From: Kiritimatiellia bacterium
GTDB lineage: Bacteria; Verrucomicrobiota; Kiritimatiellia; RFP12; UBA1067
Length of the DNA: 24,651 nt
Direction: 5' to 3'
Assembly (NCBI GenBank): GCA_050949565.1
Contig: JBMNFY010000018.1
Location: forward strand, 1-24,651
Part shown: one piece after another, positions 1-22,102 of the stretch
Numbering within the stretch: position 1 is the stretch's first letter
Layout of the letters: each line of letters starts with the position of its first letter
Made by a program: the position numbers and the translations under genes
The notes under the pieces: model-generated
What the model was told of the DNA's origin: nothing
The model's database searches: none
What the model saw: only the letters and a program-made list of their open reading frames with translations

Positions 1-1450
1 TTAGTGGAACAGCCTCAATGGCATAATCAAGACGATGAGCGTAAGCATTCTGTGAAATAATGTCGCCATCGAATGCTGTCGGGATTCTTGACGGTGTCAT
101 TTGGCTCACGATATTCCATGCAACTTTTCGTGCGTCACCGAAATAGGCGTCGCGACCGTCCGCTCTCTCAAGGTGGTTGAGATCAATCGAGGCGCTTTGC
201 AGAACCCCGGTGACATTTCTGAACCAGCGTTCTGACATTACAACCAAACGGCTCTTATCAGCCCCGTCACGTGTCACGCCAGCAAGAGAGAGAAAATGAT
301 TGGTCAGTGAATTAATATTGAATTTGCTAGCCGGAGCGAACGCATGGGTACCCAGATTGGGGATTGCGGTGATACTTTCTGTTTCCAGCGGATGTATGTT
401 CGGATTCGGATCATACGAGAGCGAAGAGAACGGCATGCGGTCGGGATTGGATTCCAGATCGGGGATTTGAGACTTGAGATCTTCGATCTTTTCATGATCG
501 ACGTGGGCGAACCAGTTGGTGACGTCGGCCTGGCTGAAACAGACACGCGGCAACTTTTGCGTGGTGGGGCCGGTGAGGAAGTGGTTGGCGTCGAGAAAAC
601 CGGAAACGTCGAAGACCGCGAAGGCGACGCGGGCGGCGGTGTCGCGCCAGGGCTCTCCTGGGACTTCGATGGAATGCCACGATGAGCGGAAAGGAGAGGT
701 TGAGGAGGTGAGGTCAATGCCGTTCGTGAGCGCGGGCGGAATCAGTGCACGGACTTCGGGTGTGAGCAGGTTGACGGTCCATTGATCACGCATTTCAGAG
801 GTGGTGAATTCGGGGGTGGGGGGAGAGACTGGAGGGGCGCTTTTTTGTATCGGCGGTGAGGCGAGAACGCCGGGGGCTTGGAATTCGACGGAATTAGGCC
901 CTGTAGGATTTTCGATGTTGTCCCCCTCCCATTTGTCTGAAAACCAGCGGCCGACCGGCGCGAGGCGCTGGGGGACAGGCGAGCCGGAATCAACGGAAAA
1001 GGGTGCGTCGGCGAAATTGGCGGTGCAGAAAGCGTCCTCGACCGTGCGCATGGCGAGGTGCAGCGCTTCGTTGAGCTGGTTGCGCGCCGCCAGGCGGTGC
1101 GTTGCGGCGGCGGTGGCCTGCTGCTGCAGGCGGGTGGCGGCCAGGAAGGTGACGGCCATGACGCTGAGCACGGTCAGGATGCCGAGCGTGACCAGCAGCG
1201 TCGCGCCGCGCCGTGCGTCAGCGCGACGCGGATATGGGAGGGACGAGCGTCCGCTCGTCCGCGGGCAAGCGACGCTTGCCCCTCCCAGTGCTCCGCGAGC
1301 CGACTTGTGAGGGGGAGAGACGAGCGTCCGCCCGTCTGCGGGCAAGCGACGCTTACCCCTCCCGGCGCCCTGCGGGCCGGCTTGTGAGGGAGAGGGACGA
1401 GCGTCCCGGTGCTTCGCGGGCCGGCTTGTTAGCTTACCAGAGCAGATCAT
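1..1450 (-). CDS. PilX/GspK-like minor pseudopilin, truncated by the window edge at its 3' end (absent from the ORF track)
   Basis: Hand translation gives ...RRG|ATLLVTLGILTVLSVMAVTFLAATR..., a K/X-type helix lacking Glu5, with Gly-1 at 1205-1207. The frame reads ...LDYAIEAVPL at base 1. An in-frame ATG at 1450 has GGAGG 8 nt upstream. It is the last of the H-I-J-K series. Confidence 0.8.
   Translation of the reverse strand, partial: MICSGKLTSRPAKHRDARPSPSQAGPQGAGRGKRRLPADGRTLVSPPHKSARGALGGASVACPRTSGRSSLPYPRRADARRGATLLVTLGILTVLSVMAVTFLAATRLQQQATAAATHRLAARNQLNEALHLAMRTVEDAFCTANFADAPFSVDSGSPVPQRLAPVGRWFSDKWEGDNIENPTGPNSVEFQAPGVLASPPIQKSAPPVSPPTPEFTTSEMRDQWTVNLLTPEVRALIPPALTNGIDLTSSTSPFRSSWHSIEVPGEPWRDTAARVAFAVFDVSGFLDANHFLTGPTTQKLPRVCFSQADVTNWFAHVDHEKIEDLKSQIPDLESNPDRMPFSSLSYDPNPNIHPLETESITAIPNLGTHAFAPASKFNINSLTNHFLSLAGVTRDGADKSRLVVMSERWFRNVTGVLQSASIDLNHLERADGRDAYFGDARKVAWNIVSQMTPSRIPTAFDGDIISQNAYAHRLDYAIEAVPL
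1236..1286. repeat. REP element, family 1 (three-way hairpin), copy inside the PilX-like leader
   Basis: GGGAG/CTCCC outer stem enclosing GGACGAGC-gtcc-GCTCGTCC and GGGCAAGC-gac-GCTTGCCC. Degenerate copies follow at ~1311-1363 and ~1389-1408. Confidence 0.85.
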
Positions 1451-1832
1451 TCAAGAATCCTCCGAATGGCCATTCGTCTGCATTCGCGACTAAACCGCGA
1501 CGAACAGGATTGTTCCGCACGTACTCCCATTTCTCGTGATAGTTTTCACCTCGTCGTAATTGCGTATCCCAGCAATCTCGTTGGAATATCGGCGATTTTT
1601 GCGTTTTATTTCGCGAGGGAGGGACGAGCGTCCGCTCGTCCGCGGGCAAGCGGACGCTTGCCCCTCCCAGTGCTCCGCGAGCCGACTTGTGAGGGGGAGA
1701 GACGAGCGTCCGCCCGTCTGCGGGCAAGCGACGCTTACCCCTCCCGGCGCCCTGCGGGCCGGCTTGTGAGGGAGAGGGACGAGCGTCCCGGTGCTTCGCG
1801 GGCCGGCTTGTTAGCTTACCAGAGCAGATCAT
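1434..1832 (-). pseudogene. Chimeric ORF created by the duplication: PilX-leader start fused to the RAYT C-terminal fragment
   Basis: The N-terminus equals the 1450 leader (MICSGKL...) and the C-terminus is identical to the RAYT end (...YVRNNPVRRGLV...LLW). It lacks the HUH motif. Confidence 0.7.
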
Positions 1833-2373
1833 TCAAGAATCCTCCGAATGGCCATTCGTCTGCATTCGCGACTAAACCGCGACGAACAGGATTGTTCCGC
1901 ACGTACTCCCATTTCTCGTGATAGTTTTCACCTCGTCGTAATTGCGTATCCCAGCAATCTCGTTGGAATATCGGCGATTTTTGCGTTTTATTTCGCGAGG
2001 GAGGGACGAGCGTCCGCTCGTCCGCGGGCAAGCGGACGCTTGCCCCTCCCAGCGCTCCGCGAACCGCACGTGTGACTAGGGATTTCCAATACCGCACCCA
2101 TTTGGCCACATTCTCGGCATCCGGTGATGCGGGCGCGCAGAAAAGGTGGATATGATCCGGCATCAGTACGTACGCACCTACCGTGTGTGATGTCGCCGAT
2201 GCCCATGCATCGACAAGAACGCGGTGCGTGAACGGAGTCGCGAATGTGTTTGCGAGGCGATCCGCCGCGCAAACTGTCACAAAAAGAATCACCGGCGTGT
2301 TGAAACGTGTCACGTTCGGAAGATGCGCTGGATGGCTGCGGTTGGCATTGACTCTGTCGTGGTCGTTCACCAT
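1816..2373 (-). CDS. REP-associated tyrosine transposase (RAYT, Y1 HUH / IS200-IS605 superfamily)
   Basis: Motifs FVTVC, YVLMPDHIHLF (HUH) and YVRNNPVRRGLV..W, flanked by REPs. ATG 2373 is preferred over 2697 because the longer start overlaps the upstream gene and reads through a REP. Confidence 0.9.
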   Translation of the reverse strand: MVNDHDRVNANRSHPAHLPNVTRFNTPVILFVTVCAADRLANTFATPFTHRVLVDAWASATSHTVGAYVLMPDHIHLFCAPASPDAENVAKWVRYWKSLVTRAVRGALGGASVRLPADERTLVPPSRNKTQKSPIFQRDCWDTQLRRGENYHEKWEYVRNNPVRRGLVANADEWPFGGFLNDLLW

Positions 2374-2522
2374 GGTGTCCTCATGCGCTGCTGTTGGGTT
2401 CTCGGTGCTCCGCGAGCCGGCTTGTGAGATGGGAGGGACGAGCGTCTGCTCGTCCGCGGGCAAGCGACGCTTGCCCCTCCCGGTGCTTTGCGAGTCGGTT
2501 CTAACGTTCTGGCGATATTCAT
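2367..2522 (-). CDS. 51-aa uORF, probable original 5' end of the PilX-like gene
   Basis: ATG 2522 overlaps the upstream stop (ATGA). It reads the REP as GGASVACPRTSRRSSLP, the same frame as in the PilX leader, and its TGA overlaps the RAYT start (ATGGTGA). Confidence 0.55.
   Translation of the reverse strand: MNIARTLEPTRKAPGGASVACPRTSRRSSLPSHKPARGAPRTQQQRMRTPW
2431..2481. repeat. REP family 1 copy upstream of RAYT
   Basis: 51-bp direct copy of 1236-1286 with one mismatch. Confidence 0.85.
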
Positions 2523-3730
2523 GGCAGACGCGAGCCTCCGGCTTGCGGAAGGGTGATGCGGCGGGAAATGAAGGTGCCCAAGTAACTGCTCTTGAGTACG
2601 TCGGCGGGTGAGGAATCCTTCTCGAGTTTCCAATACGCGGCCCAGTCCTGTTCGTCAAACAAACGAAATGCAACGTCGATTTGATCGGGCAGCACATCGG
2701 TAGTCAGACGGTCATAGGTGGGGGGGGAGGTCAACTTCATATTCCCGTCGTCGATGAACACCCATTCGTCGCTGTTTTCAATCATGTGCGGAAACCCTGG
2801 ATCTTCCTTCCGGACGAAACCTTCCGGGATCGTTGCGTTCAGCGATGGCAGTACGCGCTCCGCCAATAGCGTGTATTGCCATTTTACATCTGATGATTTT
2901 GTGGGATCTTGCAGGGCTTCAATTATGTCGTCATGAGTCCCTGCATTTCGGATTGAATCCAACAACTCATGCAGGAGGGTGCCCAGAGGCTCTGGATCGT
3001 TAAAATCGTTATACAGCGGAATGACGTGGCGAAAGAGGGCGTTGAGGTAGTACGTGTAGAAAACCGCATCGAGCGAAAAACGAGTGTCAGTTGCGCCGGC
3101 GGTGTCGGGGTCTGGCACACGCGAAGAACTTCGCCGCGCAAAAGCCAGCAACACCACCACGTCATTCAGCGTAGCGTTAATGGGCGGCGTCTCAAGGATG
3201 AAGCTCGGGTATTCTGGCGCATTGGCAGTGGAATTATTCGGGACGCTATTATCCGCCACCGCTTGGTAGAGATCATCCGCGATGAGGTCGGTGATCGCGA
3301 GGGCGGCAGTCTGCTCTTTTTTCTGGCTGCGCGAGGCGGACCACATCTCGGTGGCGCTGTTCAGGACGGTCATCAGGATGCCGAGGATCACGACGAAGAG
3401 CGAGAGGGCTGCCACCAACTCGATGAGGGTGAAGGCGGGGGAAGAAGTTCTAAAGTGCGGGAGTTCTAAAGTCCTCAAGTTGGCATGCCTCTGTTGTTGT
3501 CTCACACGAAGGCACAAAGGACACGAAGGTTTTTTGGGGAAAGTAGAGAAATTTTGGAGTGCGGCGGCAAGCGGTATTCCGCGCGACGCCGCTTTGTGAG
3601 GGCACACCGGAAAGCGGTGCCGCACTGCGTTTGTCACCGCACTCCACATGATGCGTCGAGTGTCGAGTGTTGAACGTTGCACGTTGAGCGTTGAGAGTTG
3701 AGCGTTGAAGAAGAGGCGGAGGGCGTTCAT
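2519..3730 (-). CDS. PilW/GspJ-like minor pseudopilin with a 99-aa repeat-derived leader
   Basis: SPA|FTLIELVAALSLFVVILGIL methylation motif with F+1 at 3433. ATG 3730 overlaps the upstream stop (ATGA). Confidence 0.85.
   Translation of the reverse strand: MNALRLFFNAQLSTLNVQRSTLDTRRIMWSAVTNAVRHRFPVCPHKAASRGIPLAAALQNFSTFPKKPSCPLCLRVRQQQRHANLRTLELPHFRTSSPAFTLIELVAALSLFVVILGILMTVLNSATEMWSASRSQKKEQTAALAITDLIADDLYQAVADNSVPNNSTANAPEYPSFILETPPINATLNDVVVLLAFARRSSSRVPDPDTAGATDTRFSLDAVFYTYYLNALFRHVIPLYNDFNDPEPLGTLLHELLDSIRNAGTHDDIIEALQDPTKSSDVKWQYTLLAERVLPSLNATIPEGFVRKEDPGFPHMIENSDEWVFIDDGNMKLTSPPTYDRLTTDVLPDQIDVAFRLFDEQDWAAYWKLEKDSSPADVLKSSYLGTFISRRITLPQAGGSRLP
3555..3646. repeat. Inverted REP doublet, family 2, inside a prepilin leader
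   Basis: TGGAGTGCGG...CGCCGCTTT faces AAAGCGGTG...CCGCACTCCA as imperfect inverted arms. Confidence 0.7.
3655..3710. repeat. Degenerate heptamer array (GTTGAGC-like x8) in a prepilin leader
   Basis: gtcgagt gtcgagt gttgaac gttgcac gttgagc gttgaga gttgagc gttgaag. Confidence 0.75.
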
Positions 3731-4305
3731 GGCAGGCCTCCGGGGTTGGTGAGGGTGGTGCGGAACAGACGTTGGTCGCTGGAGTAGGTAAGGCCGTCTG
3801 GATGGATGACGAGCGTGATATGGAGGGCGGTGAAGGGGCCGGGACTAGGAGGATTCAAGAAATTGCCCGTCAGGCTGTATAGCGGGTTCCAGTCCGTCAG
3901 GGAAAGGTTGTCTTTGTCGAATGTGGCGGCAAAAGAATTGGGCTCCGTGAAGCGCAGGAGGATCTTGGGGCTGGCGCTCATGTTGGCGATTGGTGGGAAG
4001 GGGATGTCGAATTTGTTCTGGCGTGCCTGTTCCCAGAGGTATTCCCACGTGCCAGACACGACGCCGTTCGTCCGCGCTTCTTCAACAAAGCGGGCGTTGT
4101 AGTCGCGCAAGGTTTCGAAGATCGCGTCGGCCATCAAGGCACAACGCTGGTCGTATTCGGTCTCTTTGGCGGTTTGCAGGCCGAGACGGCCGAGGCCGAA
4201 AATGGCCAGTAGGCCGAGACCGATGGCCAGCATGGCTAGGGCGGTCTCGATCAGGGTGAAACCCTTCTGGCGATTTTCAAGGACAAAAGAGAGGAGGTCC
4301 ATCAT
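3727..4305 (-). CDS. PilV/GspI-like minor pseudopilin
   Basis: QKG|FTLIETALAMLAIGLGLLAIFGL with a short normal leader. ATGA overlaps at both ends. Confidence 0.85.
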   Translation of the reverse strand: MMDLLSFVLENRQKGFTLIETALAMLAIGLGLLAIFGLGRLGLQTAKETEYDQRCALMADAIFETLRDYNARFVEEARTNGVVSGTWEYLWEQARQNKFDIPFPPIANMSASPKILLRFTEPNSFAATFDKDNLSLTDWNPLYSLTGNFLNPPSPGPFTALHITLVIHPDGLTYSSDQRLFRTTLTNPGGLP

Positions 4306-5135
4306 CTCGGGTCTCCTAAAACGGTGACAGTGCCGGTGGCGGGGTCGATGCGGAGGAGGCGGACAAGCGGTGCGGGGGTTGCCGACTCGGGATCAGGGAA
4401 GGACTGGGCGGTATGAAGAGCAATTGTGTGGTAAGGGTAATCCGACGGGGTGATCCCGTCGTCGATCATGACGCTGCCGTCGGGACGGAAGATCAGCAGC
4501 GAGGGCGTGTGCTCACCAGAATCAGGTTTTTCGCGCCTGCTCAGGCGGACATGGCCGGAGAGCCGCTGAAACGGTGTGGCGGGCTCCAGGATGAGCGGGT
4601 TTGCAATATCGCCGAACTCTGTGCTTTGCGATGGCAGGAACATCTTATTGTCCACATTTTGCACCAGATCCCTTAAAGCCGTCTCATCAACGGGCGGGAC
4701 CGCGTTCGTACAGATGAAGGACTGAAAGCCCGTGGTAGCAGACGTTACGACTGCAGGCCGGTTGGTGCTGCCGTAGCTGAAGGCGACGTAGGCGTGGCGG
4801 GTGACGGCGAGCGTGCGGGCCTGCTGCAGTCCGGCCTCGACGACGCGCGTGGCGCCGGTGAGGGCGTGCGCCGTGCCCCATGAGCCGTAGGCGCCGACGA
4901 GGATCGCCAGCCCGATGCCGATGACGGTCAGCACGGCAAGGAGTTCGAAGAGGGTGAAGCCCTTATTGCGACCACGTAGTGGACGCAATGGGGAGAGTAA
5001 AAGGGAATGGCGGCCACCCAGTGGTCGCAATGGGGAGAGTAAAAGGGCGGTTTTTTTAACGCAGAGACGCAGAGACGCAGAGCGTTGCGGCGCCGCGTGC
5101 CGAAGGTCGCTTGTCGCGAGTCGGGCGTTCATCAT
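4302..5135 (-). CDS. FimT/GspH-like minor pseudopilin with a 59-aa leader
   Basis: NKG|FTLFELLAVL, ARTLAV, IFRPDGS and C-terminal RIDPATG. Start moved to ATG 5135 because it overlaps the upstream stop (ATGA). Confidence 0.85.
   Translation of the reverse strand: MMNARLATSDLRHAAPQRSASLRLCVKKTALLLSPLRPLGGRHSLLLSPLRPLRGRNKGFTLFELLAVLTVIGIGLAILVGAYGSWGTAHALTGATRVVEAGLQQARTLAVTRHAYVAFSYGSTNRPAVVTSATTGFQSFICTNAVPPVDETALRDLVQNVDNKMFLPSQSTEFGDIANPLILEPATPFQRLSGHVRLSRREKPDSGEHTPSLLIFRPDGSVMIDDGITPSDYPYHTIALHTAQSFPDPESATPAPLVRLLRIDPATGTVTVLGDPR
4968..5047. repeat. Two 42-bp-period hairpin repeats in the leader (family 3), with a third copy at 6570-6608
   Basis: gcgaccac-gta-gtggacgcaatggggagagtaaaaggg occurs twice and encodes LLLSPLRPL.GR. 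The related ttgcgactactcagtggtcgcgatggggagggcaaaagg lies just before another cleavage site. Confidence 0.75.
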
Positions 5136-5941
5136 GGCCGCACCCCCGCGCTGTAGATGTAGTTGGTGTTGTTCGGACCGGCAGGGCCGCGTGAGAAGGC
5201 GAAGGCGATCTGATTGGAAACAGAGTGCGTGGCAATCACCGCGTCGGCTGAATTCTTGATGTCGTACGTGAAAACTCCTCGGGGATTCAGCCCCATGAAG
5301 AGGATGTAACTTTGATCCCACGGGTCGCGGTAGTCGACTCGGAGGCGGTCGCCCTCGTTTTGAAGGTCAAGGAATCGGATCCCCTTGGGGTTAAGCGGAT
5401 TGACCGGGTAGGGAGCGCTGGACGAATCGCCGACGGTGCTGAAAGCCTGATAGATGATGCGACCGTCGGTGTCGTCTTCGTCGAGTTTAAGGATTAGGTG
5501 GGAAATATCGTTGCCGTCTTGGTCTCTGGCTTTGAGATCATTCAGGAAGTCCGGATGGCCGTAGACGATGCAGGGTAACGTTTTTTCACCACTTTTTACC
5601 TCGGAGGGAGTGGCGTCGTTGAGCTCTACCGTACCTTGCGCGGCATTTTTGACTTGGAGCTGTCCGGGCCAGAAGCCGTATTCGGTTTTGTAGCGGATGG
5701 CGGCCTGGGCGAGCGCCGTGGCTTCGGCGGCGGCCTGGCGGCGCAGCGCGGCGGCGCGTACGGTCTTGATCGTGGGCAGGATGATGGCCAGCAGCACGGA
5801 GAGCACGCCGATCACCATGACGAGCTCGAGGACGGTAAAGGCGTTTTGATAGTGAATAGTGAATAACGAATAACGAATAGCTGTCGCGGGCGGGGATGCC
5901 CACGCTCCCGACTGGGGTCGACTATGGAGGGGGAAACGCAT
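5132..5941 (-). CDS. GspG-like type II secretion pseudopilin
   Basis: QNA|FTVLELVMVIGVLSVLLAIILP, YKTEYGFWP and a DPW motif. Confidence 0.85.
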   Translation of the reverse strand: MRFPLHSRPQSGAWASPPATAIRYSLFTIHYQNAFTVLELVMVIGVLSVLLAIILPTIKTVRAAALRRQAAAEATALAQAAIRYKTEYGFWPGQLQVKNAAQGTVELNDATPSEVKSGEKTLPCIVYGHPDFLNDLKARDQDGNDISHLILKLDEDDTDGRIIYQAFSTVGDSSSAPYPVNPLNPKGIRFLDLQNEGDRLRVDYRDPWDQSYILFMGLNPRGVFTYDIKNSADAVIATHSVSNQIAFAFSRGPAGPNNTNYIYSAGVRP

Positions 5942-6662: not shown

Positions 6663-7367
6663 TCACCGTTCAAAGTAGATGTCGTCAAGAGTAGGGTCAA
6701 GGTCACTCGCAGGGGAGCCGGTGGGGATTTGCTGGCTGTCGATCAGGGTACGGCGATTCGGCCCGCAGGAGAAGAGGGTGTATGCTTGGGCGTTGTCGGA
6801 AGTCAGGTAGATGTAGGGCATACCCCAGGGATCAACCGTGCTGACGGCTGTCGTGAGGAACGAGCGGAAGGTGATGTTGGTGGGTACTCCATCGTGCTCA
6901 AAGCGGACGTAACAGCCGGATGAATCGGTGTCGTTTGTCAGGATGGCGAGCGGGTAACGCGATGGGGTTGTCAAATCCCAGTCGACGGAATCGAGTGAAT
7001 CGACGGAATCGACGTCTGTTTTGATGCGGGCGTGGGGGTATTCGCCGAACTGGAGGTGCCAGCGGTTTAGTGTCTCGTGCCACTCTCCCAGGTCGGCCTG
7101 AGCGCGGCGGATATTGGCGGCTGCGTTCACATGCCGCGCGAGGCCGAGCACCAGAGCCATCAGAATGGAGACAATTCCCATGACAATCGCCAGTTCGATC
7201 ATAGTCATGCCGACCACGCCGCTGGCGCGGACGTGGCCGAGTGAGGATTTAGGATTTAGGAGTGAGGAGTTGACGGGACGGCGGGACAATAGAGAGGACA
7301 GGAACGCAGGTGCGCGGATGCGTCCGAGGTTTTTAGCGGATGATGTGCGTTTTGTCTGGCTCTCCAA
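6663..7367 (-). CDS. GspG-like major pseudopilin
   Basis: VVG|MTMIELAIVMGIV, FGEYP and DPWGMPYIY...YTLFSCGPN, a T2SS-G-type C-terminus. TTG start with AGGAG upstream; the start is uncertain. Confidence 0.85.
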   Translation of the reverse strand: MESQTKRTSSAKNLGRIRAPAFLSSLLSRRPVNSSLLNPKSSLGHVRASGVVGMTMIELAIVMGIVSILMALVLGLARHVNAAANIRRAQADLGEWHETLNRWHLQFGEYPHARIKTDVDSVDSLDSVDWDLTTPSRYPLAILTNDTDSSGCYVRFEHDGVPTNITFRSFLTTAVSTVDPWGMPYIYLTSDNAQAYTLFSCGPNRRTLIDSQQIPTGSPASDLDPTLDDIYFER

Positions 7368-7439: not shown

Positions 7440-9158
7440 CTACTCTTCCATCCGTCCGGCGACACGCAGGACCTCTTCCACGGATGTGCGGCCTTCGATC
7501 ACGCGCAGCCAGCCGTCTTGGCGCAGCGTGACCATGCCCTCTTTCATGGCAAGGTCCTTAATGATGTTGGCCGGTTCACGCGCGACGACCATCGCGCGCA
7601 GCGGGTCGCTCATGATCATGACTTCGTTGATCGCACTACGGCCGCGGTATCCGGTGAAACCGCAGGCCGGGCAGCCATGGCCGTGAATAAACTGGGCTTC
7701 ATCAATGCGATCGGGGTAGGTCATGGCGATTTCGTTGCGGATGGATTCGGGCACTTCGTAAGTGTCGTTGCAATTGCGGCAGACGCGGCGCACCAGACGC
7801 TGAGCGACGATACCCTCGACGCATGAGGAGATCAGGTAGGGCTCGACGCCCATGTCGGTCAAGCGCGTGACCGCGCTGGGCGCGTCGTTGGTGTGGAGCG
7901 TGCTGAGCACCAAGTGACCGGTGAGCGAGGAGCGTACCGCGATGTCGGCAGTTTCGGAGTCACGGATTTCGCCGACTAGGATCACGTCCGGGTCGTGACG
8001 CAGGATGGAACGCAGCACACTGGCGAAGGTGAGTCCGATCTTGCTATGGATCTGAACTTGACTGATGCCGGCCATCTGATATTCGACGGGGTCCTCCACG
8101 GTGATGATCTTGGTGCCGGTCTTGTTGAGGCGGGCCAGTAGCGCGTAGAGCGTGGTGGTTTTGCCGGAGCCGGTGGGGCCGGTCATCAGAATGACGCCAT
8201 GCGGAAGCTCGGTGAGCTTGGCGATCTTGGGAAGCTGGTAGGGCGAGAGGCCCAGGGTATCGAGGTCGATTTTGATGGTGCCGCGGCTAAGGATACGCAG
8301 ACAGCAGGTCTCACCCCAGCCGGTCGGCAGGACCGAGACACGCAGGTCATAATCGCTGTTGCCGCAGCGCACCTTGATGCGGCCGTCGTGCGGCTTGCGG
8401 TGCTCGGCGATATCCATGGCGGCCATGATTTTGACGGCGGAGCTGACCGCGTTGCGCAGTTTTTCTACGCCCTTGGGCAACGGGATCTCTTGCAGGATGC
8501 CGTCGATACGATAACGTAGGCGCAACGTGTTCTCAAATGGCTCAATGTGGATGTCGGTGCAGTCCATGCGGATCGCTTCAGCGATGATCAGGTTGATGAA
8601 GCGCACCATGCCGGTCTCTTGAGTCTGGACCGCAATATCGTCGTCCTCCTCATCCTGCGGCATCGCCTCGGCTTCGGCGATGAGTTGGTCGATGGTCTCC
8701 GCGCCGAGCCCGTAGAAGTGGGTCAGTGACATGGAGACGTCGCTTTCGGGGCAGAGCACAAACTCAATGCCGGCGTCGAGCACCATGCGCAGACCGTCGA
8801 CCGTGGTCAGGTTCGGCACGCGGCTCACGGCGAGCCGGAGGATGCCGTCCTGAAAGGTCAACGGCACGATACGGTGGCGCAGGGCAACCTTGGCGGTGAC
8901 CTTGTCGATGGCCTCCTGCTCGATCCTGAAATCGCCGATATTGTGGAACGGGATCCCGCTGGCCTCGGAAAAGGCTTTCAGCAGATCGGTTTCATTGACG
9001 ATGGCCTCCTGGACCAGCAACCGGTCGACACCTTGGAGCGTCACTGCGGCGCGACCTTGGACGTCGCCGAGCTTATCGAGCGTCAGCAGACCGCGATCGA
9101 CAAGCTTTTGAGTGACCTCTACGAGCAGTTCATCGGAGTAATAACGAATATCAGGCAT
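7440..9158 (-). CDS. pilB: PilB/GspE pilus assembly ATPase
   Basis: Walker A GPTGSGKTT, TVEDPVE, LRHDPDVILVGEIRD, STLHTND and CxxC...CxxC zinc motif. Confidence 0.95.
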   Translation of the reverse strand: MPDIRYYSDELLVEVTQKLVDRGLLTLDKLGDVQGRAAVTLQGVDRLLVQEAIVNETDLLKAFSEASGIPFHNIGDFRIEQEAIDKVTAKVALRHRIVPLTFQDGILRLAVSRVPNLTTVDGLRMVLDAGIEFVLCPESDVSMSLTHFYGLGAETIDQLIAEAEAMPQDEEDDDIAVQTQETGMVRFINLIIAEAIRMDCTDIHIEPFENTLRLRYRIDGILQEIPLPKGVEKLRNAVSSAVKIMAAMDIAEHRKPHDGRIKVRCGNSDYDLRVSVLPTGWGETCCLRILSRGTIKIDLDTLGLSPYQLPKIAKLTELPHGVILMTGPTGSGKTTTLYALLARLNKTGTKIITVEDPVEYQMAGISQVQIHSKIGLTFASVLRSILRHDPDVILVGEIRDSETADIAVRSSLTGHLVLSTLHTNDAPSAVTRLTDMGVEPYLISSCVEGIVAQRLVRRVCRNCNDTYEVPESIRNEIAMTYPDRIDEAQFIHGHGCPACGFTGYRGRSAINEVMIMSDPLRAMVVAREPANIIKDLAMKEGMVTLRQDGWLRVIEGRTSVEEVLRVAGRMEE

Positions 9159-9207: not shown

Positions 9208-9259
9208 GGGAGGGACGAGCGTCTGCTCGTCCGCGGGCAAGCAGACGCTTGCCCCTCCC
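9208..9259. repeat. REP family 1, intergenic copy
   Basis: Same three-way hairpin sequence as 2431-2481, with a 1-nt longer second loop. Confidence 0.85.
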
Positions 9260-9333
9260 GGCGCTCCGCGGGCCCGGAGGCCGCACACGTTCACAGCGCA
9301 GATGCAAGACTATTTGTGGCCGGGTTAGTAGGA

Positions 9334-11747: not shown

Positions 11748-13493
11748 CTAATAGGGTCGTCTCACTTCGATCTCGATCACAAATCGTCTGAAATTGGGGA
11801 GCTTCTCACCCTCCAGCTCGGGGATGCCGGTTGGGGCGAGCACCTGGTCGTCGCTGCGCAGGTCGACCCGCACGATGTCGGGCGAGGTCTTGAGACGTTC
11901 AATCATCTCTCTGACGCTTTTCAGGCTCGGGTTGGAGGTGTAACCCTCCGCGATGAAGACGGCCGAGAGCGGATCAACCAGGTCCTTGCGCGGCGGCGGT
12001 TCCTTTTTGTCGGCCGTCGTCGGCGCGGCCGCTGTTGGGCGCAGCGTGCGGAAGAGCGAGAACGGGTTGCGCACGGCCGCCTGGGGCGTGTCGGCCTTGG
12101 TGTTCAGATCCTGCTCTTTCGGATTGTAGATGTTCTCGTCGCAAAACATCGTGATCCAGTCTTCGGGATCCACCGTGTGTGCGACGAGCGTCAACACCTC
12201 TCGCGCGAGCGGTCCGTTGAGGGTGGCCTGCGTGATCGGCACCGCGTTGCTCAGGACGGCGGCTTGTTGGGCGCGCAGATCCTGGATGTGTTTGTCGATC
12301 TGCTCGCGCCGCCTGAGCTGTTCGCGTTCCGCATCCAGCAAGGCGCCGTCGCGCCGCAGCAAGTAGACGCCAGTGGCGGAGTAGAGTGCCATTGTAGCGG
12401 TCAGAAAGACGGCGGCCGCGATCCACCACGGTTTTTGCGCACGGAACACTACCTCGTCCTTGAGGTCCTGCGGCAACAGCGAGAGCGTCGTCGTGCCCCG
12501 TCCCATCGCGGTGATCGCGAGGCCGAAGGCCATGTCGTAAACACCCGCATACTGCTGATAACTCTTGTCGATGCTCGGCAGTTCCGAGACGTGTTGAACC
12601 GGCAGGAACAGTTTGGCGGCGAGATACTCTTTAAGTCCTTTGAGTTGGGCGCCGCCGCCGGTGATCACGATGCGCGCGACGGTGAATTTACGGTCTTGGA
12701 AGGTGCTGCGGTAAACGCCCATGCAGGCGTTGAACTGCGAGATCCATCGGTCGGCTGCGAGGCGCAGCGGCTCGCAGCAGGCGTCGTTTTCGCGCAGTCC
12801 ACAATCGACATGTTTGCGCACTTCGGCCTGCACGGCCGGTAGGCCGGTGGTTTGCGCCACTGCATCCGTAAAGAGCTTGCCGCCCGCGGCGAGGGAACGC
12901 GCGAAGAGCAACCCGCTGTTGAGGCCGATGGCGACTTCAGTCTGCGTGTGGCCGATGCTCACATAGCAGTATGGCTCTTCACGCTCGCCGGCGAATGTTT
13001 CCATCGCGTTGTAGAGCGCGACCGGTGCGGAGATCAGGTCTGCGGGACGCAGGCTGTTGCGTCGCGTCGCTTGGACAACCTCCTTGATTGAGGAGGGACG
13101 CGCCATCGACATGATGTAGCGCCGGACGCCGGCTTCGAAGGGCGTTTCAAACGCGAAGACATCATACGCCATGTCATCACCGGCCATCTCGCTGAATTGG
13201 GCGATGTCCATGGCGGCGACCTGTTCGGGCGTACGCGGGTCGTTGGGCATGATGCGCCCACTCTGAAAGACGGTTTGCGAGCCCGGCAGGGCGATCGCGC
13301 AGAACTGCTTTGCAACCCCGAGCTTGTGCACCCAGGTGGCGATCAGCTTGTGGGGGTCTTCCTCATCGTCCATCGGCAGCGCAAGGGTCTCCGCGCGCGT
13401 CACGACCGGGCGGCTGCCGCGCAGCCCCACCCAGACAGCCCGCACGGAGCGGGAACCGACGTCAAAGGCGATCATCTGTTTGATTCGAGACAT
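11748..13493 (-). CDS. pilM: PilM-PilN fusion protein
   Basis: Actin-like IAFDVGSRSVR, SIGHTQT and ITGGGAQLKGL, then LSLLP + TM helix + coiled coil + PilN-like C-terminus. Confidence 0.85.
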   Translation of the reverse strand: MSRIKQMIAFDVGSRSVRAVWVGLRGSRPVVTRAETLALPMDDEEDPHKLIATWVHKLGVAKQFCAIALPGSQTVFQSGRIMPNDPRTPEQVAAMDIAQFSEMAGDDMAYDVFAFETPFEAGVRRYIMSMARPSSIKEVVQATRRNSLRPADLISAPVALYNAMETFAGEREEPYCYVSIGHTQTEVAIGLNSGLLFARSLAAGGKLFTDAVAQTTGLPAVQAEVRKHVDCGLRENDACCEPLRLAADRWISQFNACMGVYRSTFQDRKFTVARIVITGGGAQLKGLKEYLAAKLFLPVQHVSELPSIDKSYQQYAGVYDMAFGLAITAMGRGTTTLSLLPQDLKDEVVFRAQKPWWIAAAVFLTATMALYSATGVYLLRRDGALLDAEREQLRRREQIDKHIQDLRAQQAAVLSNAVPITQATLNGPLAREVLTLVAHTVDPEDWITMFCDENIYNPKEQDLNTKADTPQAAVRNPFSLFRTLRPTAAAPTTADKKEPPPRKDLVDPLSAVFIAEGYTSNPSLKSVREMIERLKTSPDIVRVDLRSDDQVLAPTGIPELEGEKLPNFRRFVIEIEVRRPY

Positions 13494-13534: not shown

Positions 13535-13662
13535 GGGAGGGACGAGCGTCTGCTCGTCCGCGGGCAAGCAGACGCTTGCCCCTCCCGGTGCTCCGCGAGC
13601 AGGCATGTGGGGGAGGGACGAGCGTCCGCTCGTCCGCGGGCAAGCAGACGCTTGCCCCTCCC
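13535..13662. repeat. Two tandem REP family 1 copies (13535-13586 and 13611-13662)
   Basis: Same hairpin sequence, intergenic between secretin and pilM. Confidence 0.85.
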
Positions 13663-13715
13663 GGTGCTAGTCTGGTTAACGTTTTTTCAGATTTCATGCT
13701 TGAGCATTCTCCCGA

Positions 13716-16007
13716 TCAGGGGGTTGCCGGGGCTTTCAGGATGTCGGGAACCTGCGCTTCGGCCGGCACGTCGAGGCCGTAGCGCTCGAAGTCGTTCAGC
13801 GGGATCAGCTCCTCGCCGATGTCGCTGATGAGCGTTGCGGTGACGAAGATCAGGATATTGTTAATTTTTTTCTCATTTGTTTTTGTACCAAATAAATTGC
13901 CGATGAAGGGGAGTTTTGACAGCCACGGGATACCACTGTCTTTGTCCTTTGCGCTCGTGTCGACGAGCCCGCCCAATACGACGGTTTCGCCGCTGCGTAC
14001 GACGGCCTCGGTCTCGATATATTGTCGGGAAAGAATAGGAATTTCAATGGCAGGTTCATTTTCCACGCTGTCTGCGCTGTCAAGGCTGCTCAACCGGTAT
14101 CTCTTCCAATCTTTGATGGAACTGATTTCGGGACGGAGCACCATTGTGATCGTTGAGAGATCTGCGCCGACACTCGGCGTTACGACGAGCGAATAGCCAG
14201 TCTCCACGATCGTGGGTCGATCATAATCATAGGTGACGTTGTCGCGCGAGTCGTTGTTGTTGTAGCCTCCGCTGGTCATGATATCGGTCTCAACTTCTTC
14301 GAAGTAGGAGGTGTCCTCGCCTACGCGGAAACGCGCCTCGCGGTTGTTGAGCGTGGTCACGCGAGGCACGACAATCATACGGCTTTTCCCGGATTCTTCG
14401 AGCGCTTTAAGCGTTGTTTGAAGTGCAGTGTTGCCTAACAAATATTGGAAATAAGCCTCTCCTGTCGCCGTCGAACCCATCCGACTTCCGTTAAGGAAAG
14501 CAGTACCCTGCAATTTCTTTTCTTGCATGTCTTTGATTTGGCGTTCAATCGCAATAATCTCTTCAACAGTGGCGTCTGGATCATTTTGATTTCTTCGAAG
14601 CTCGTTGATTGCCGTGCTACCGTCGCTGAGCGTTGTGGTAACGGGACGCTGGAAAAGCCATTCGATGCCGAGTTCGCGCAGGTCGGTGACGGTCGTGGTG
14701 ACGAAGCGCGCCTCGATCAGCACTTGCAGCGGACGCAGGTCCATCGCCGCGATCAGTTCTTCCACCAAGGCTAGGTTGTCCAACGTATTCTTGACAATCA
14801 GCGCGTGTACCTTGTCGTCAAACATAAAATCCGCGCCATCGGGCTGCGGCACGAAACGGTCGATGGCTTCCAGCAGGCCGACCTTGGGCTCGGCGCCAGG
14901 CTTCTGCTCCTGCTGCTGGTTACTGGATCTGCTGCTGTTGCGTTCTTCGGGCCCCTTGAAAAGAGACTGTCCCTGCGCGGACTTGCCGAGTTCAGAGCCG
15001 ACCAGCCCTTTGCGCAGCCGGTAGACGCGGGTCTTCATAGGGGGGACGCCGACCGCGGGCGGCTCTTTTTGCGTGATCCAGATCAGGTTGCTATAGACCG
15101 AAAAGCTGATGTCGAGGTTCTTATCGAAGTACTCCAACATCTCGATCAACGGCGTGTTTTCAAAGCGAGCCGTGATCAGTTTGGTACTGACGATTTCGCT
15201 GTCGGCGATGTAGTTGATGTTGGTGGACTTTTTGATCTCGGCGATGATGGCGTTGACGTCGGCGTTTTCGAGGGTCAGGCTCACCGGCTGCTGCAACGCC
15301 TTCTGCATCTCGGTGAGCGGCGTGACGACTGCGTTGGTTTCGCCCATCACGTGTTGCTTCTGGCGGTAGCGTTGCGGCATGGCGGCGAAACCGAGGGCGT
15401 CGGCTGTGCCGAGGTCAACGGTGGCTTCGGCCCTCTTGTTGGCGGCCGTGAGCCGTTCCTCGGCCAGGCGCAGGTTGATGCGGCGCTGCAAGTCGGCGAG
15501 GCCGACCGCCTCGGGGTCCTTGCGCGTGATGTCGATGCAGGCGGAGATTGCCTCCTGCGTCTGGCCGGCCACAAAGAGCGCTTCGGCAGCGGCCACCGCC
15601 GGCGAGAGGTCGCGCGTCATGCGGGCGCGCAACTGGGCGAGACCCACGGCGTCTGGCCTTTCTTCGGCCAGGGCGTTGCAAGCGGTGAGTGCCTCTTGCC
15701 GTTGACCGTTCTCGAAGAGCCGTTCAATTTCCAGCACTTCGGGCGAAAGACGACGGGCCACACGGCTTTGCAGCTCTTGCAGGCCGGCATTGACCGCCGC
15801 GTTGGTCGAGGGCGCCACGCTGGCTACGATGAAAGAGCGCAGGTAACCCTGCTCGAACAGACGCTCGGCCTCGGCGACTTCAGGCTCTTTCTCGGTCGGC
15901 CCTTCTCCGTACCACGGGAGTTGCGAACTGGTGCAGCCGATAACGATGGCCAGCGATGAGGCCAGAAGGAGAGGAACGGCGGTTGTGGCGATGTTTTTCA
16001 TAAGCAT
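13716..16007 (-). CDS. Secretin (PilQ/GspD family), probable lipoprotein
   Basis: LAIVIG-C lipobox-like signal, QVLIEARFV...ELGIEW, PRVTTLNNREA, VRSGETVVLGGL and GIPWLSKLPFIGNLF. Confidence 0.92.
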   Translation of the reverse strand: MLMKNIATTAVPLLLASSLAIVIGCTSSQLPWYGEGPTEKEPEVAEAERLFEQGYLRSFIVASVAPSTNAAVNAGLQELQSRVARRLSPEVLEIERLFENGQRQEALTACNALAEERPDAVGLAQLRARMTRDLSPAVAAAEALFVAGQTQEAISACIDITRKDPEAVGLADLQRRINLRLAEERLTAANKRAEATVDLGTADALGFAAMPQRYRQKQHVMGETNAVVTPLTEMQKALQQPVSLTLENADVNAIIAEIKKSTNINYIADSEIVSTKLITARFENTPLIEMLEYFDKNLDISFSVYSNLIWITQKEPPAVGVPPMKTRVYRLRKGLVGSELGKSAQGQSLFKGPEERNSSRSSNQQQEQKPGAEPKVGLLEAIDRFVPQPDGADFMFDDKVHALIVKNTLDNLALVEELIAAMDLRPLQVLIEARFVTTTVTDLRELGIEWLFQRPVTTTLSDGSTAINELRRNQNDPDATVEEIIAIERQIKDMQEKKLQGTAFLNGSRMGSTATGEAYFQYLLGNTALQTTLKALEESGKSRMIVVPRVTTLNNREARFRVGEDTSYFEEVETDIMTSGGYNNNDSRDNVTYDYDRPTIVETGYSLVVTPSVGADLSTITMVLRPEISSIKDWKRYRLSSLDSADSVENEPAIEIPILSRQYIETEAVVRSGETVVLGGLVDTSAKDKDSGIPWLSKLPFIGNLFGTKTNEKKINNILIFVTATLISDIGEELIPLNDFERYGLDVPAEAQVPDILKAPATP

Positions 16008-20882: not shown

Positions 20883-21275
20883 ATGAAGGACAGAATGAGG
20901 TACAGTGAAGCGTTCAAACTCAAGGTAATGGAGGAGCTGAGGGATGCAAAATGGAAGTCAGTTCAGGAGGCCGCCAAGGCATATGGAATTTCGGAGATGT
21001 CGGTCTACAACTGGATGCACAAGCTCGGCTTCGAACATCTGAAAGGAAGGCTCGTTTACGTGAAGACACGGACGGAATTGGATCGGATCAAGGAGCTCGA
21101 GGCGGAGAACCTCCGCCTCAAGCAGAGCCTCGCGGACGAGGTGCTCGACAACAGGCTGAACCAGGCGTTTCTTCGGATCGCCTGCCGGCGGGCCGGGACG
21201 ACCGTCGAAGATCTAAAAAAAAAGAATGGTGGGATGCCGCCCACGACACCCACGAGCGGGATGGCCTGCCAGTGA
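20883..21275 (+). CDS. IS3 transposase OrfA (HTH + leucine zipper)
   Basis: RYSEAFKLKV, AAKAYGISEMSVYNW and RIKELEAENLRLK. Confidence 0.9.
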   Translation: MKDRMRYSEAFKLKVMEELRDAKWKSVQEAAKAYGISEMSVYNWMHKLGFEHLKGRLVYVKTRTELDRIKELEAENLRLKQSLADEVLDNRLNQAFLRIACRRAGTTVEDLKKKNGGMPPTTPTSGMACQ

Positions 21276-22102
21276 CGAGGCTTTGCGCCAGATGTGGAAA
21301 GAGCACGGTCGCCTACTACAAGGGCCGCAAGGCGCGCGAGAAGCGCGTCGGGCGGGAAGACGTCATTCTTCTGCTGGCCCGTCGCGAACGCATTGTCAAC
21401 CCGATGGCCGGCTGTAAGAAAGTGCTTTTCGCCATCCGGCCGGAAATGGCCGAGGCGGGGATCTCGATGGGCGTCAACAGCTTCTACAAGCTGATGAAGG
21501 AGAACGGCATGATGGTGCCGAAACGCAAGAAATACAGCTGCAAGACGACGCGGCAGGACAAGTCTCTGGCGCCTTCGCCGAATCTGGTCAAGGACATGGA
21601 GATCAATGCTCCCGATCAGGCGGTGTGCTCGGACATCACGTACATCTACACGGAAGAGGGGTTCCTGTTCCTTTCACTGATGATGGACATGTTCGTGCGC
21701 GACATCGTCGGCTGGGCGGTCTGCGACTCGCTGAAGGCCGAGGGCCCCCTGGCCGCGCTGGAGATGGCGAGCCGTGCGCTGAAGCCGGGAGCGAAACCCG
21801 TGGCGCACTCCGACCGCGGCTGCCAGTACGCTTCGCACGCCTACCGCGAGGCGCTCGAGAAGCTCGGCTGGCGGTCCAGCATGACGGAAGAACTCCACTG
21901 CTACGAGAATGCGATGGCGGAGCGCCTGAACGGCATTCTCAAGCATGAGTATTTCCTCAACACGCACTTCAAGACGAAGAAGGAAGCGATCAAGGCGATC
22001 AAAGAGGCGATCCGGATCTACAACACGCGCAGGCTGCACGAGAAGTGTGGCTTCAAGACGCCGGCGGCGTTCCGTGAGGAGACGATGAAAAAAGTTGCAT
22101 GA
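21215..22102 (+). CDS. IS3 transposase OrfB (DDE), expressed by -1 frameshift
   Basis: A9G slippery run at 21215-21224 followed by a GTGGG/CCCAC hairpin, in the -1 frame. Motifs SDITY, HSDRGCQY, ENAMAERLNGILKHE and YNTRRLH. Confidence 0.9.
   Translation, partial: KKKEWWDAAHDTHERDGLPVTRLCARCGKSTVAYYKGRKAREKRVGREDVILLLARRERIVNPMAGCKKVLFAIRPEMAEAGISMGVNSFYKLMKENGMMVPKRKKYSCKTTRQDKSLAPSPNLVKDMEINAPDQAVCSDITYIYTEEGFLFLSLMMDMFVRDIVGWAVCDSLKAEGPLAALEMASRALKPGAKPVAHSDRGCQYASHAYREALEKLGWRSSMTEELHCYENAMAERLNGILKHEYFLNTHFKTKKEAIKAIKEAIRIYNTRRLHEKCGFKTPAAFREETMKKVA

Follow-up and report, generated by a model that had tools for sequence, protein, structure and literature searches.

What becomes of a gene when a complete transposase-like gene comes to lie between its start codon and the part that codes for its mature product? 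The question is raised by the 5′ end of a giant GspK-like minor pseudopilin gene, the last gene of a type II secretion/type IV pilus-like operon on the minus strand of a 24,651-nucleotide stretch of Kiritimatiellia DNA (contig JBMNFY010000018.1, positions 1 to 24,651). It makes up the opening 24.6 kb of contig C18 in a 4.66-Mb genome of 21 contigs, and the whole stretch is referred to below as the window. We read the leader-coding 5′ end of the gene as the site of a module made up of a gene for a REP-associated tyrosine transposase (RAYT) and copies of its repetitive extragenic palindromic (REP) sequences, that is, a "REPtron", which would part the ancestral start codon at 2522 from the G/A processing site at about 1204–1210. 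An earlier, sequence-only reading held that the RAYT gene had entered through a REP already present in the leader and could leave in the same way, giving two alleles of a pilus tip subunit. All of its sequence-level statements were reproduced here. The interpretation that we favour, with some reserve, is a different one: the REPtron is tolerated and stably inherited as a cistron inside the operon, and the GspK-like gene is probably not broken.

Minor pseudopilins of the GspK/PilX type are made with a prepilin leader that is cleaved off by a PilD/GspO peptidase, and GspK itself is about 300 aa long. RAYTs are commonly regarded as domesticated enzymes, encoded by single-copy genes, with an unclear role in vivo. 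Genes can be switched by the precise excision of an inserted element, such as an insertion sequence (IS) or a "skin"-type element. REPtrons are RAYT (TnpAREP) genes flanked by their own REPs (PMC2817692, PMC3733652, PMC5581495), and read-through from upstream genes has been proposed for their expression (PMC3733652).

Orthologous loci (L0xx) were gathered from other genera of the family, from metagenome contigs and by a search with the start-region DNA. Protein matches are labelled P0xxx, and the window's own genome is G000.

Architecture of the Leader Region

The features of the region are listed in Table 1. As the sequence-only reading had stated, ATG 2522-2520 overlaps the stop codon TGA 2521-2519 of the upstream minor pseudopilin gene in an ATGA; stop/start overlaps of the same type are found at the starts 3730, 4305 and 5135. 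From ATG 2522 the frame reads MNIARTLEPTRKAPGGASVACPRTSRRSSLP..., crosses REP-a and ends at a stop at 2369-2367 (ORF, or open reading frame, 2367..2633), and this TGA overlaps the ATG of the RAYT gene as ATGGTGA. Locus L024 has the same 51-codon ORF (3071..3226 in L024). At the other end of the RAYT gene, GGAGGA and ATG 1450 lie within the last RAYT codons, spaced by 8 nt. ATG 1450 is the first codon after the stop in the GspK-like frame, and the leader that it opens consists of REP/tail units. The GspK-like ORF (2..1450, minus strand) translates REP-d and then continues as YPRRADARRG/ATLLVTLG, in the same frame as REP-a, again as previously read. The 80-codon leader is also present in L024, L025 and P0169, the last of which is started at MICSGK by the public gene caller. 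Both the ATGGTGA overlap and the start within the last RAYT codons are additional to the sequence-only reading, which had also missed the REP unit inside the RAYT ORF and a 382-bp duplication, described below.

Table 1. Coordinates of the cassette, its repeats and the operon genes in the window. Energies are for single-stranded DNA (ssDNA); a slash marks the processing site.
Feature	Position	Strand	Description
Mature GspK-like minor pseudopilin	2..1209	-	>1100 aa in relatives; cut by contig end at position 1
Present start region of GspK-like gene	1210..1463	-	GGAGGA 1463-1458, ATG 1450, 80-codon leader to RRG/ATLL
REP-d	1236..1286		51 nt; last REP before single-copy leader remnant YPRRADARRG; translated GGASVACPRTSGRSSLP
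Tandem repeat	1236..2075		382 bp x 2.2 copies, 98% matches
Duplication product ORF	1434..1832	-	132 codons: MICSGK..., REP array, second RAYT C-terminus
REP-c	1617-1668		tandem-unit boundary
RAYT (TnpAREP-type HUH/Y1)	1816..2373	-	185 aa; HUH = PDHIH; Tyr in EKWEYVRNNP
REP-b	1999..2050		52 nt; within RAYT ORF
Remnant ancestral leader ORF	2367..2522	-	51 codons; ATGA-coupled ATG 2522
REP "tail"	2400..2428		29 nt; accompanies each REP; REP + tail = ~77-nt unit; 7 copies
REP-a	2431..2481		51 nt; Y-shaped double hairpin; -20.9 kcal/mol, z -5.4; translated GGASVACPRTSRRSSLP
Partial tail	2482-2497		encodes PTRKAP
Upstream minor pseudopilin	2519..3730	-	N_methyl; stop TGA 2521-2519 overlaps ATG 2522
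GspG-like protein	6663..7367	-	
GspE ATPase	7440..9158	-	
PilM-like protein	11748..13493	-	
Secretin	13716..16007	-	

On the reading that we favour, the genes would be co-transcribed and linked in a chain of cistrons, in which the upstream pseudopilin gene is coupled through ATGA to the 51-codon remnant leader ORF and the latter through ATGGTGA to the RAYT gene, with translation presumably coupled from one to the next. The end of the RAYT gene would then supply GGAGGA and ATG 1450, from which the GspK-like protein would be made with an 80-codon leader encoded by the REPs; the prepilin peptidase would presumably remove this long leader. Such a stretch may tolerate selfish repeats because the peptidase presumably cuts the leader off; leaders of 14–138 codons, many of them made of other interspersed repeats, occur in the neighbouring genes and in all of the orthologues. 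The genome contains a peptidase A24 (prepilin peptidase) gene at C17:637093-637443 (PF01478, 73.7 bits). A sigma-70 consensus scan, which is a weak test, found no promoter-like sites, and no terminator-like sites were found on the gene strand in 1000-4400.

Ancestral Start and Repeat-Filled Leaders

The sequence-only reading took ATG 2522 to be the original start of the gene, and this is borne out by the orthologous loci. All nine RAYT-less loci with a complete leader (L012–L016, L023, L026, L043 and L046) use the homologous ATGA; the ATG overlaps the upstream stop and stays in frame and open as far as RGATL. In L041, the tenth RAYT-less locus, the sequence is truncated where its contig stops. 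The C-terminus of the upstream gene, ...RRITLPQAGGSRLP, is conserved across the RAYT-less loci, and ...ISRRITLPQAGGSRLP is conserved in L012 and L026.

The leaders of these nine loci are 14, 22, about 35, 42, 44, 66, 67, 99 and 138 codons long. In the loci with long leaders there is no ATG, GTG or TTG close to RRGATLL, nor between the repeats and RRGATLL. Since the coupled ATG is in frame and open and there is no start codon near RRGATLL, the long leaders are most likely translated and later removed. The leaders of L023 and L026 also consist of repeats, and the same holds within the operon itself: the leader of 2519..3730 (3437-3730) has 98 codons and that of 4302..5321 (4960-5135) has 58, both made of different interspersed repeats, of which the genome has up to 74 and up to 226 copies, respectively. 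With L023 and L026 included, copy numbers in the genome of the window go up to 226. REP-type peptides occur in the leader of P0134, an orthologue of a more distant lineage with 39% identity, and one homologue, P0125, has a leader of 6 residues. Regular expressions picked out 27 motif-bearing ORFs in the genome, and one of them, namely the GspK-like gene, has this REP in its leader; in the remaining long leaders, different repeat families are used.

The public gene call for the window product (P0168, 386 aa) starts at an internal Met in ...SVMAVTFL, at about position 1159 of the window. This is likely a start-site misannotation, because half of the N-terminal hydrophobic helix would be lost. 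The same MAVTFL start has been called for the homologues P0124, P0128 and P0171.

State of the GspK-Like Gene

The N-terminus of the mature protein, RRG/ATLLVTLGILTVL, has no Glu at +5. The GspK profile NF037980 matches with 17.3 bits against a cut-off of 130, over profile positions 2-61 only; the 1113-aa product of L024 gives the same picture with this profile (14.4 bits) and has no match in Pfam. Open frames in the orthologues range from 1121 to 1532 aa, and that of L024 runs intact for 1193 aa, with its 3′ end still open. Over the N-terminal 258–260 codons, dN/dS was 0.41 between the window and L024, 0.33 for L025 and 0.33 for the RAYT-less L023. All four alleles with the cassette keep the frame that begins at ATG 1450 open. 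Together, these properties suggest that the gene is probably not broken.

The start of the window contig and the end of protein P0169 fall within 13 residues of the same point in the GspK-like gene; assemblies seem to break there, perhaps at a repeat or a hypervariable stretch.

The RAYT Gene and Its REPs

The RAYT matches NCBIfam NF047646 with 81.4 bits (cut-off 80; E = 5.9e-23) and is the sole one of 13 matches to this family in the genome to score above the cut-off; Pfam PF01797 gave no match at E ≤ 0.01. The closest solved structure is the E. coli TnpAREP, 4ER8 (E = 6e-6), in which PEHMH aligns with PDHIH, and DYIYINPV with the Tyr of EKWEYVRNNP, the presumed catalytic residue. H74, H76, Y151 and Y157 are invariant among 56 homologues. 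An AlphaFold2 (AF2) model of the protein has an average predicted local distance difference test (pLDDT) score of 80.9 and a predicted TM-score (pTM) of 0.74, and its top match in Foldseek is again 4ER8 (E = 1.5e-7, TM 0.58/0.65), followed by structures of IS200/IS605 TnpA. With the HUH motif and the Tyr kept, a confidently modelled core and a disordered loop that is REP-encoded, the RAYT looks functional.

That loop, between the HUH and Tyr motifs, has 38 residues compared to a canonical 13 aa, and part of it is encoded by REP-b; pLDDT falls to 46–51 at residues 111–130. Loop length varies from 13 to 97 residues among relatives, and 52 of the 104 homologues with both flanking motifs (among the 120 listed) have loops of at least 25 aa. 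The close relatives P0011, P0005 and P0003 carry one, two and three in-frame 28-residue REP units in the loop, respectively, and P0023 is frameshifted within REP-b and truncated at 147 aa. Relatives in other genera (L034, L032 and, more weakly, L028) have different hairpins of their own before, inside and after the gene. In the one context examined, that of the nearest RAYT orthologue from another genus (G009, 68% identical), the gene is flanked by unrelated genes rather than placed in a pilin operon. A REP within the RAYT gene was considered as a new feature and dropped, having already been described (PMC6006769).

The REP, 51–52 nt long, was found by blastn at 182 distinct places in the genome, seven of them within 1 kb of the RAYT gene; the match between the two ends of the cassette is hence not due to chance. 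No copies lie near the 10 other RAYT-family loci of the genome. As ssDNA, the REPs fold with -20 to -22 kcal/mol (z -4.5 to -5.4). There is no conserved GTAG/CGTC head beside the stem: the REP ends in GGGAGGG...CCCTCCC, and CGTC occurs only within stems. Further copies of the family are present in the operon, at 9208-9270 (after the GspE gene) and at 13535-13668 (between the genes for the secretin and the PilM-like protein).

A Polymorphic Tandem Duplication

In each 382-bp unit of the tandem repeat, a REP is combined with a REP/tail array and with the C-terminal third of the RAYT gene, which includes the catalytic Tyr. REP-b, REP-c and REP-d bound the units, with REP-b upstream-most, and the copies are 100% identical between 1271-1570 and 1653-1952. 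The duplication is absent from L024 and L025, where ATG and RGATL are 930 nt apart, compared to 1312 nt in the window. P0037, which is near-identical to the product of the 132-codon ORF, has five member sequences on three contigs; since it can be encoded only by the duplicated form, it implies the duplication in other assemblies. At the level of sequence, the duplication is thus polymorphic.

Similar REP-associated long-period arrays occur elsewhere in the genome, at C15:26737-29234 (623 nt x 4.0), at C1:40525-41471 (289 nt x 3.3) and, as a complex 194/290/484-nt array, at C6:54263-55304, all with 97–99% identity. Such arrays point to repeated REP-bounded amplification in the genome. Because P0037 requires the duplication and because of these arrays, the duplication is unlikely to be an assembly artefact. 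Its polymorphism implies that the locus is prone to recombination through the REPs. With REP-bounded recombination at work here, a deletion between REP-a and REP-d is plausible as an event, as distinct from a demonstrated switch.

Stability of the Cassette and Search for an Empty Allele

REP-a and REP-d are direct repeats of 51 nt with a single mismatch (2447 T versus 1252 C), and the regions around them, 2426-2497 and 1231-1302, are 92% identical. Crossing over between the two was simulated at three positions. As had been claimed, 1195 bp were lost every time, and each product had an ORF that starts at ATG 2522, includes a 41-codon leader and meets no stop up to the end of the window. REP-a crossed with the 52-nt REPs gave products that were out of frame. 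Excision could therefore occur in principle, but neither the loci nor the proteins included an excised copy: a REP-only empty allele was absent from the five close loci (L023–L026 and L041) and from 58 protein matches, of which 47 are longer and 11 of similar length and none starts with MNIARTLE.

Nor did the proposed route of entry fit the RAYT-less orthologues. They share the start codon, as expected, but this REP family had no match in the leaders of the ten RAYT-less loci (that of L041 being incomplete), which hold other repeats. Homology between the window and the RAYT-less alleles ends at 2518 and 1213, with unrelated repeats in between; the closest of these alleles, L023, L026 and L041, are either ~95% identical to the window over the initial 800 nt that code for the mature protein, or identical to it in the first 50 residues. 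Two alleles of the tip subunit would differ in the leader that is cut off, and their mature protein would be the same.

The cassette itself is conserved. L024 and L025 carry it at the same site, with 98.8% identity over 950 nt (window 2566..1617) and a RAYT that is 98.4% identical, in loci whose flanking upstream pseudopilin is just 76–85% identical to that of the window. P0169 combines the same 80-residue leader, with one difference, and a mature part of 64% overall identity. The cassette had been considered as an assembly artefact; this was rejected, the cassette being present also in L024, L025 and P0169. In same-genus genomes (56–89% complete), a weak GspK-like match was found in one of six and a match to the leader start in none of the six.

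The sequencing runs that contain the window stretch are digester and bioreactor metagenomes. Among 24 listed runs, 14 had at least half of the words of window 1-4200, and four (X1, X2, X9 and X13) were examined. A RAYT unitig corresponding to 2027-2457 was present in all four, always with the four differences common to L024 and L025. Its depth was 2–4x that of the window-like flanks, and that of the 3′ third was 1.2–1.7x that of the 5′ part; these depths were discounted and not used as evidence, because strains with diverged flanks are left out of them. Four bases (2183, 2335, 2344 and 2353) set the window RAYT apart from L024, L025 and all four runs; in the runs, the version of the window itself did not turn up.

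A comparison of L024, which has the cassette, with L026, which has none, showed 70 aligned codons beyond codon 270 to be identical, while the first 239 differ with dS of 0.66. This mosaic points to recombination between alleles of the GspK-like gene.

Alternative Explanations

Several other explanations have to be set beside a tolerated cistron. The sequence-only reading would have the RAYT gene enter through a leader REP and leave by a crossover between REP-a and REP-d, through RecA or RAYT, so that alleles with and without RAYT switch the tip pseudopilin. The two REPs are indeed direct, one base apart and in the same frame, such that the 1195-bp deletion opens a 41-codon leader; unequal recombination bounded by REPs can be traced here and at no fewer than three further loci of the genome; P0134, from a distant lineage, also has REP-type peptides in its leader; and deletion of REPtrons in E. 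coli strains is mentioned in PMC3733652. Against this stand the negative searches for REP-only leaders and for MNIARTLE starts, the fact that the whole leader differs from that of the RAYT-less alleles (with breaks at 2518 and 1213), beyond the cassette alone, and the conservation of the cassette over diverged backgrounds. Moreover, a frame match has a 1 in 3 chance of arising by accident, and the mature protein would be identical from both alleles. We consider this explanation improbable. On the favoured reading, deletion between REP-a and REP-d restoring the 41-codon leader would be a mechanistically possible by-product, not a demonstrated switch. It is equally doubtful that recombination between REPs, catalysed or stimulated by the RAYT, remodels the locus, which could entail duplication or deletion of the Tyr-bearing third of the RAYT gene, frameshifts that turn the enzyme on and off as the REP units of its loop vary in number or length, in-frame excision of the cassette, self-regulation, toggling of the pseudopilin and the spread of leader alleles between strains.

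If, instead, the insertion had inactivated or strongly polarised the GspK-like gene, the 80-codon frame and ATG 1450 would be accidents of GC-rich repeats, and the gene would be decaying. The stop at 2369-2367 does sever the ancestral start, GC-rich REPs have few stops in any frame, and with the window contig and P0169 both ending near the same point of the gene, full-length integrity is established for neither. Decay is, however, hard to reconcile with dN/dS values of 0.33–0.41 in cassette-bearing pairs, equal to that in the comparison with the RAYT-less L023, with the intact L024 ORF, with a frame kept in four alleles despite changes in REP length (51 and 52 nt coexist, and P0023 has its frameshift in REP-b), or with a strong Shine–Dalgarno-like GGAGGA correctly spaced before ATG 1450, and we regard it as unlikely. 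Less likely still is a start near the mature N-terminus, at a non-canonical codon or an internal Met, with long leaders that are untranslated and 1210-2522 as a spacer that collects repeats. Such a start is what the MAVTFL calls for P0168, P0124, P0128 and P0171 would imply, and the 6-residue leader of P0125 agrees with it. The coupled ATG, however, is in frame and open over 14–138 codons in nine of nine RAYT-less loci, with a chance of 1 in 3 each even before stops are considered; ATG, GTG and TTG are missing between the repeats and RRGATLL; and the MAVTFL start would delete half of the hydrophobic helix.

Some observations also count against the tolerated, translated cistron that we prefer. 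Leaders of at least 80 residues far exceed textbook prepilin leaders. The stretch from ATG 1450 to the mature part contains three hairpins that are stable, with an ssDNA energy of about -20 kcal/mol apiece, and these could reduce downstream translation or trigger RNA processing. Automatic annotation, with its MAVTFL start for P0168, does not see the start at ATG 1450. The four cassette-bearing alleles share their leader by descent, so that their open frame does not amount to four independent observations, and dN/dS between L024 and L025 is about 1, on just 16 differences. Finally, the sole read data are short unitigs that end inside each REP, in which neither an empty site nor a joint of the duplication could be made out.

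Comparison with Known Systems

The locus resembles a REPtron in its HUH/Y1 enzyme, in the hairpin repeats on both sides and in having ~180 genomic copies of the repeat and one cognate gene. Described REPtrons are intergenic, whereas the one here lies between a start codon and a processing site, flanked on each side by a stop and a start codon that overlap. It also differs in its REP, which is without a GTAG head, and in its host, which is probably a PVC bacterium rather than a proteobacterium; the source names of homologues indicate Kiritimatiellia or other members of the PVC group. TnpAREP subclass 2.4 has REPs in frame within tnpAREP, between HuH and Y, in a peripheral region (Quentin 2018, PMC6006769). 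REP-b similarly keeps the frame and is placed between HUH and Tyr, within a disordered peripheral loop of variable length, as in subclass 2.4 (RAYT group 4), and by motifs alone our RAYT resembles this subclass, with YVRNNP in place of the YIxNNP given there. Unlike in subclass 2.4, the internal REP also bounds a tandem duplication of the Tyr-bearing third.

In-frame REPs within genes and Rickettsia palindromic elements add 17–30 extra residues in dispensable parts of proteins (PMC3733652, and Ogata et al. as cited there). The tolerant site here, in contrast, is a cleaved prepilin leader that holds a whole transposase-like gene. In Additional file 3 of PMC3733652, neither "transposase" nor "pilin" occurs (0 occurrences each) among the REP-bearing ORFs. 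Thus, REPtrons, intragenic in-frame REPs and REPs inside tnpAREP were already known from the available parts of PMC2817692, PMC3733652 and PMC6006769. A complete REPtron between a prepilin-type start codon and its processing site, tied to the adjacent genes by stop/start overlaps and kept in diverged alleles, was not found in those parts; no search was aimed at this arrangement, and its absence from print is not established.

The GspK-like gene shares with GspK its position, last after the GspG-like and pseudopilin genes and downstream of those for the secretin, the PilM-like protein and GspE, as well as the lack of Glu at +5 and the presence of a peptidase A24 in the genome. It departs from GspK in its profile score (17.3 versus 130 bits), in its length (>1100 versus about 300 aa) and in its leader of 80 residues, which reaches up to 138 in relatives. 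As in genes switched by excision, the direct repeats at the ends would restore an open frame upon deletion. Unlike in those, no excised allele or circle was observed, and the interrupted gene seems to keep a start of its own.

The locus thus offers a natural set of polymorphic REP-bounded rearrangements around a RAYT, including a duplication that is present or absent and REP length variants that change the frame. It suggests that the cut-off leader of a pilin or pseudopilin can act as a safe harbour for selfish repeats and that here, through overlapping codons, it accommodates a complete gene. For pilus biology it raises the question of whether the prepilin peptidase handles leaders of 80–138 residues. 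For annotation, it would mean that automatic gene calls put these starts in the wrong place, the window product being called from an internal Met.

Operon Context

The operon runs in the order secretin, PilM-like protein, GspE, GspG-like protein, four pseudopilins with N_methyl motifs and, last, the GspK-like gene. For the pseudopilin immediately upstream of the latter (2519..3730), TIGR02599 matched the N-terminal part only, with 28.7 bits against a cut-off of 256.5. Farther along the window, at 20951-22102 on the plus strand, there is an ORF with an rve integrase core domain, an IS-type transposase unrelated to the RAYT.

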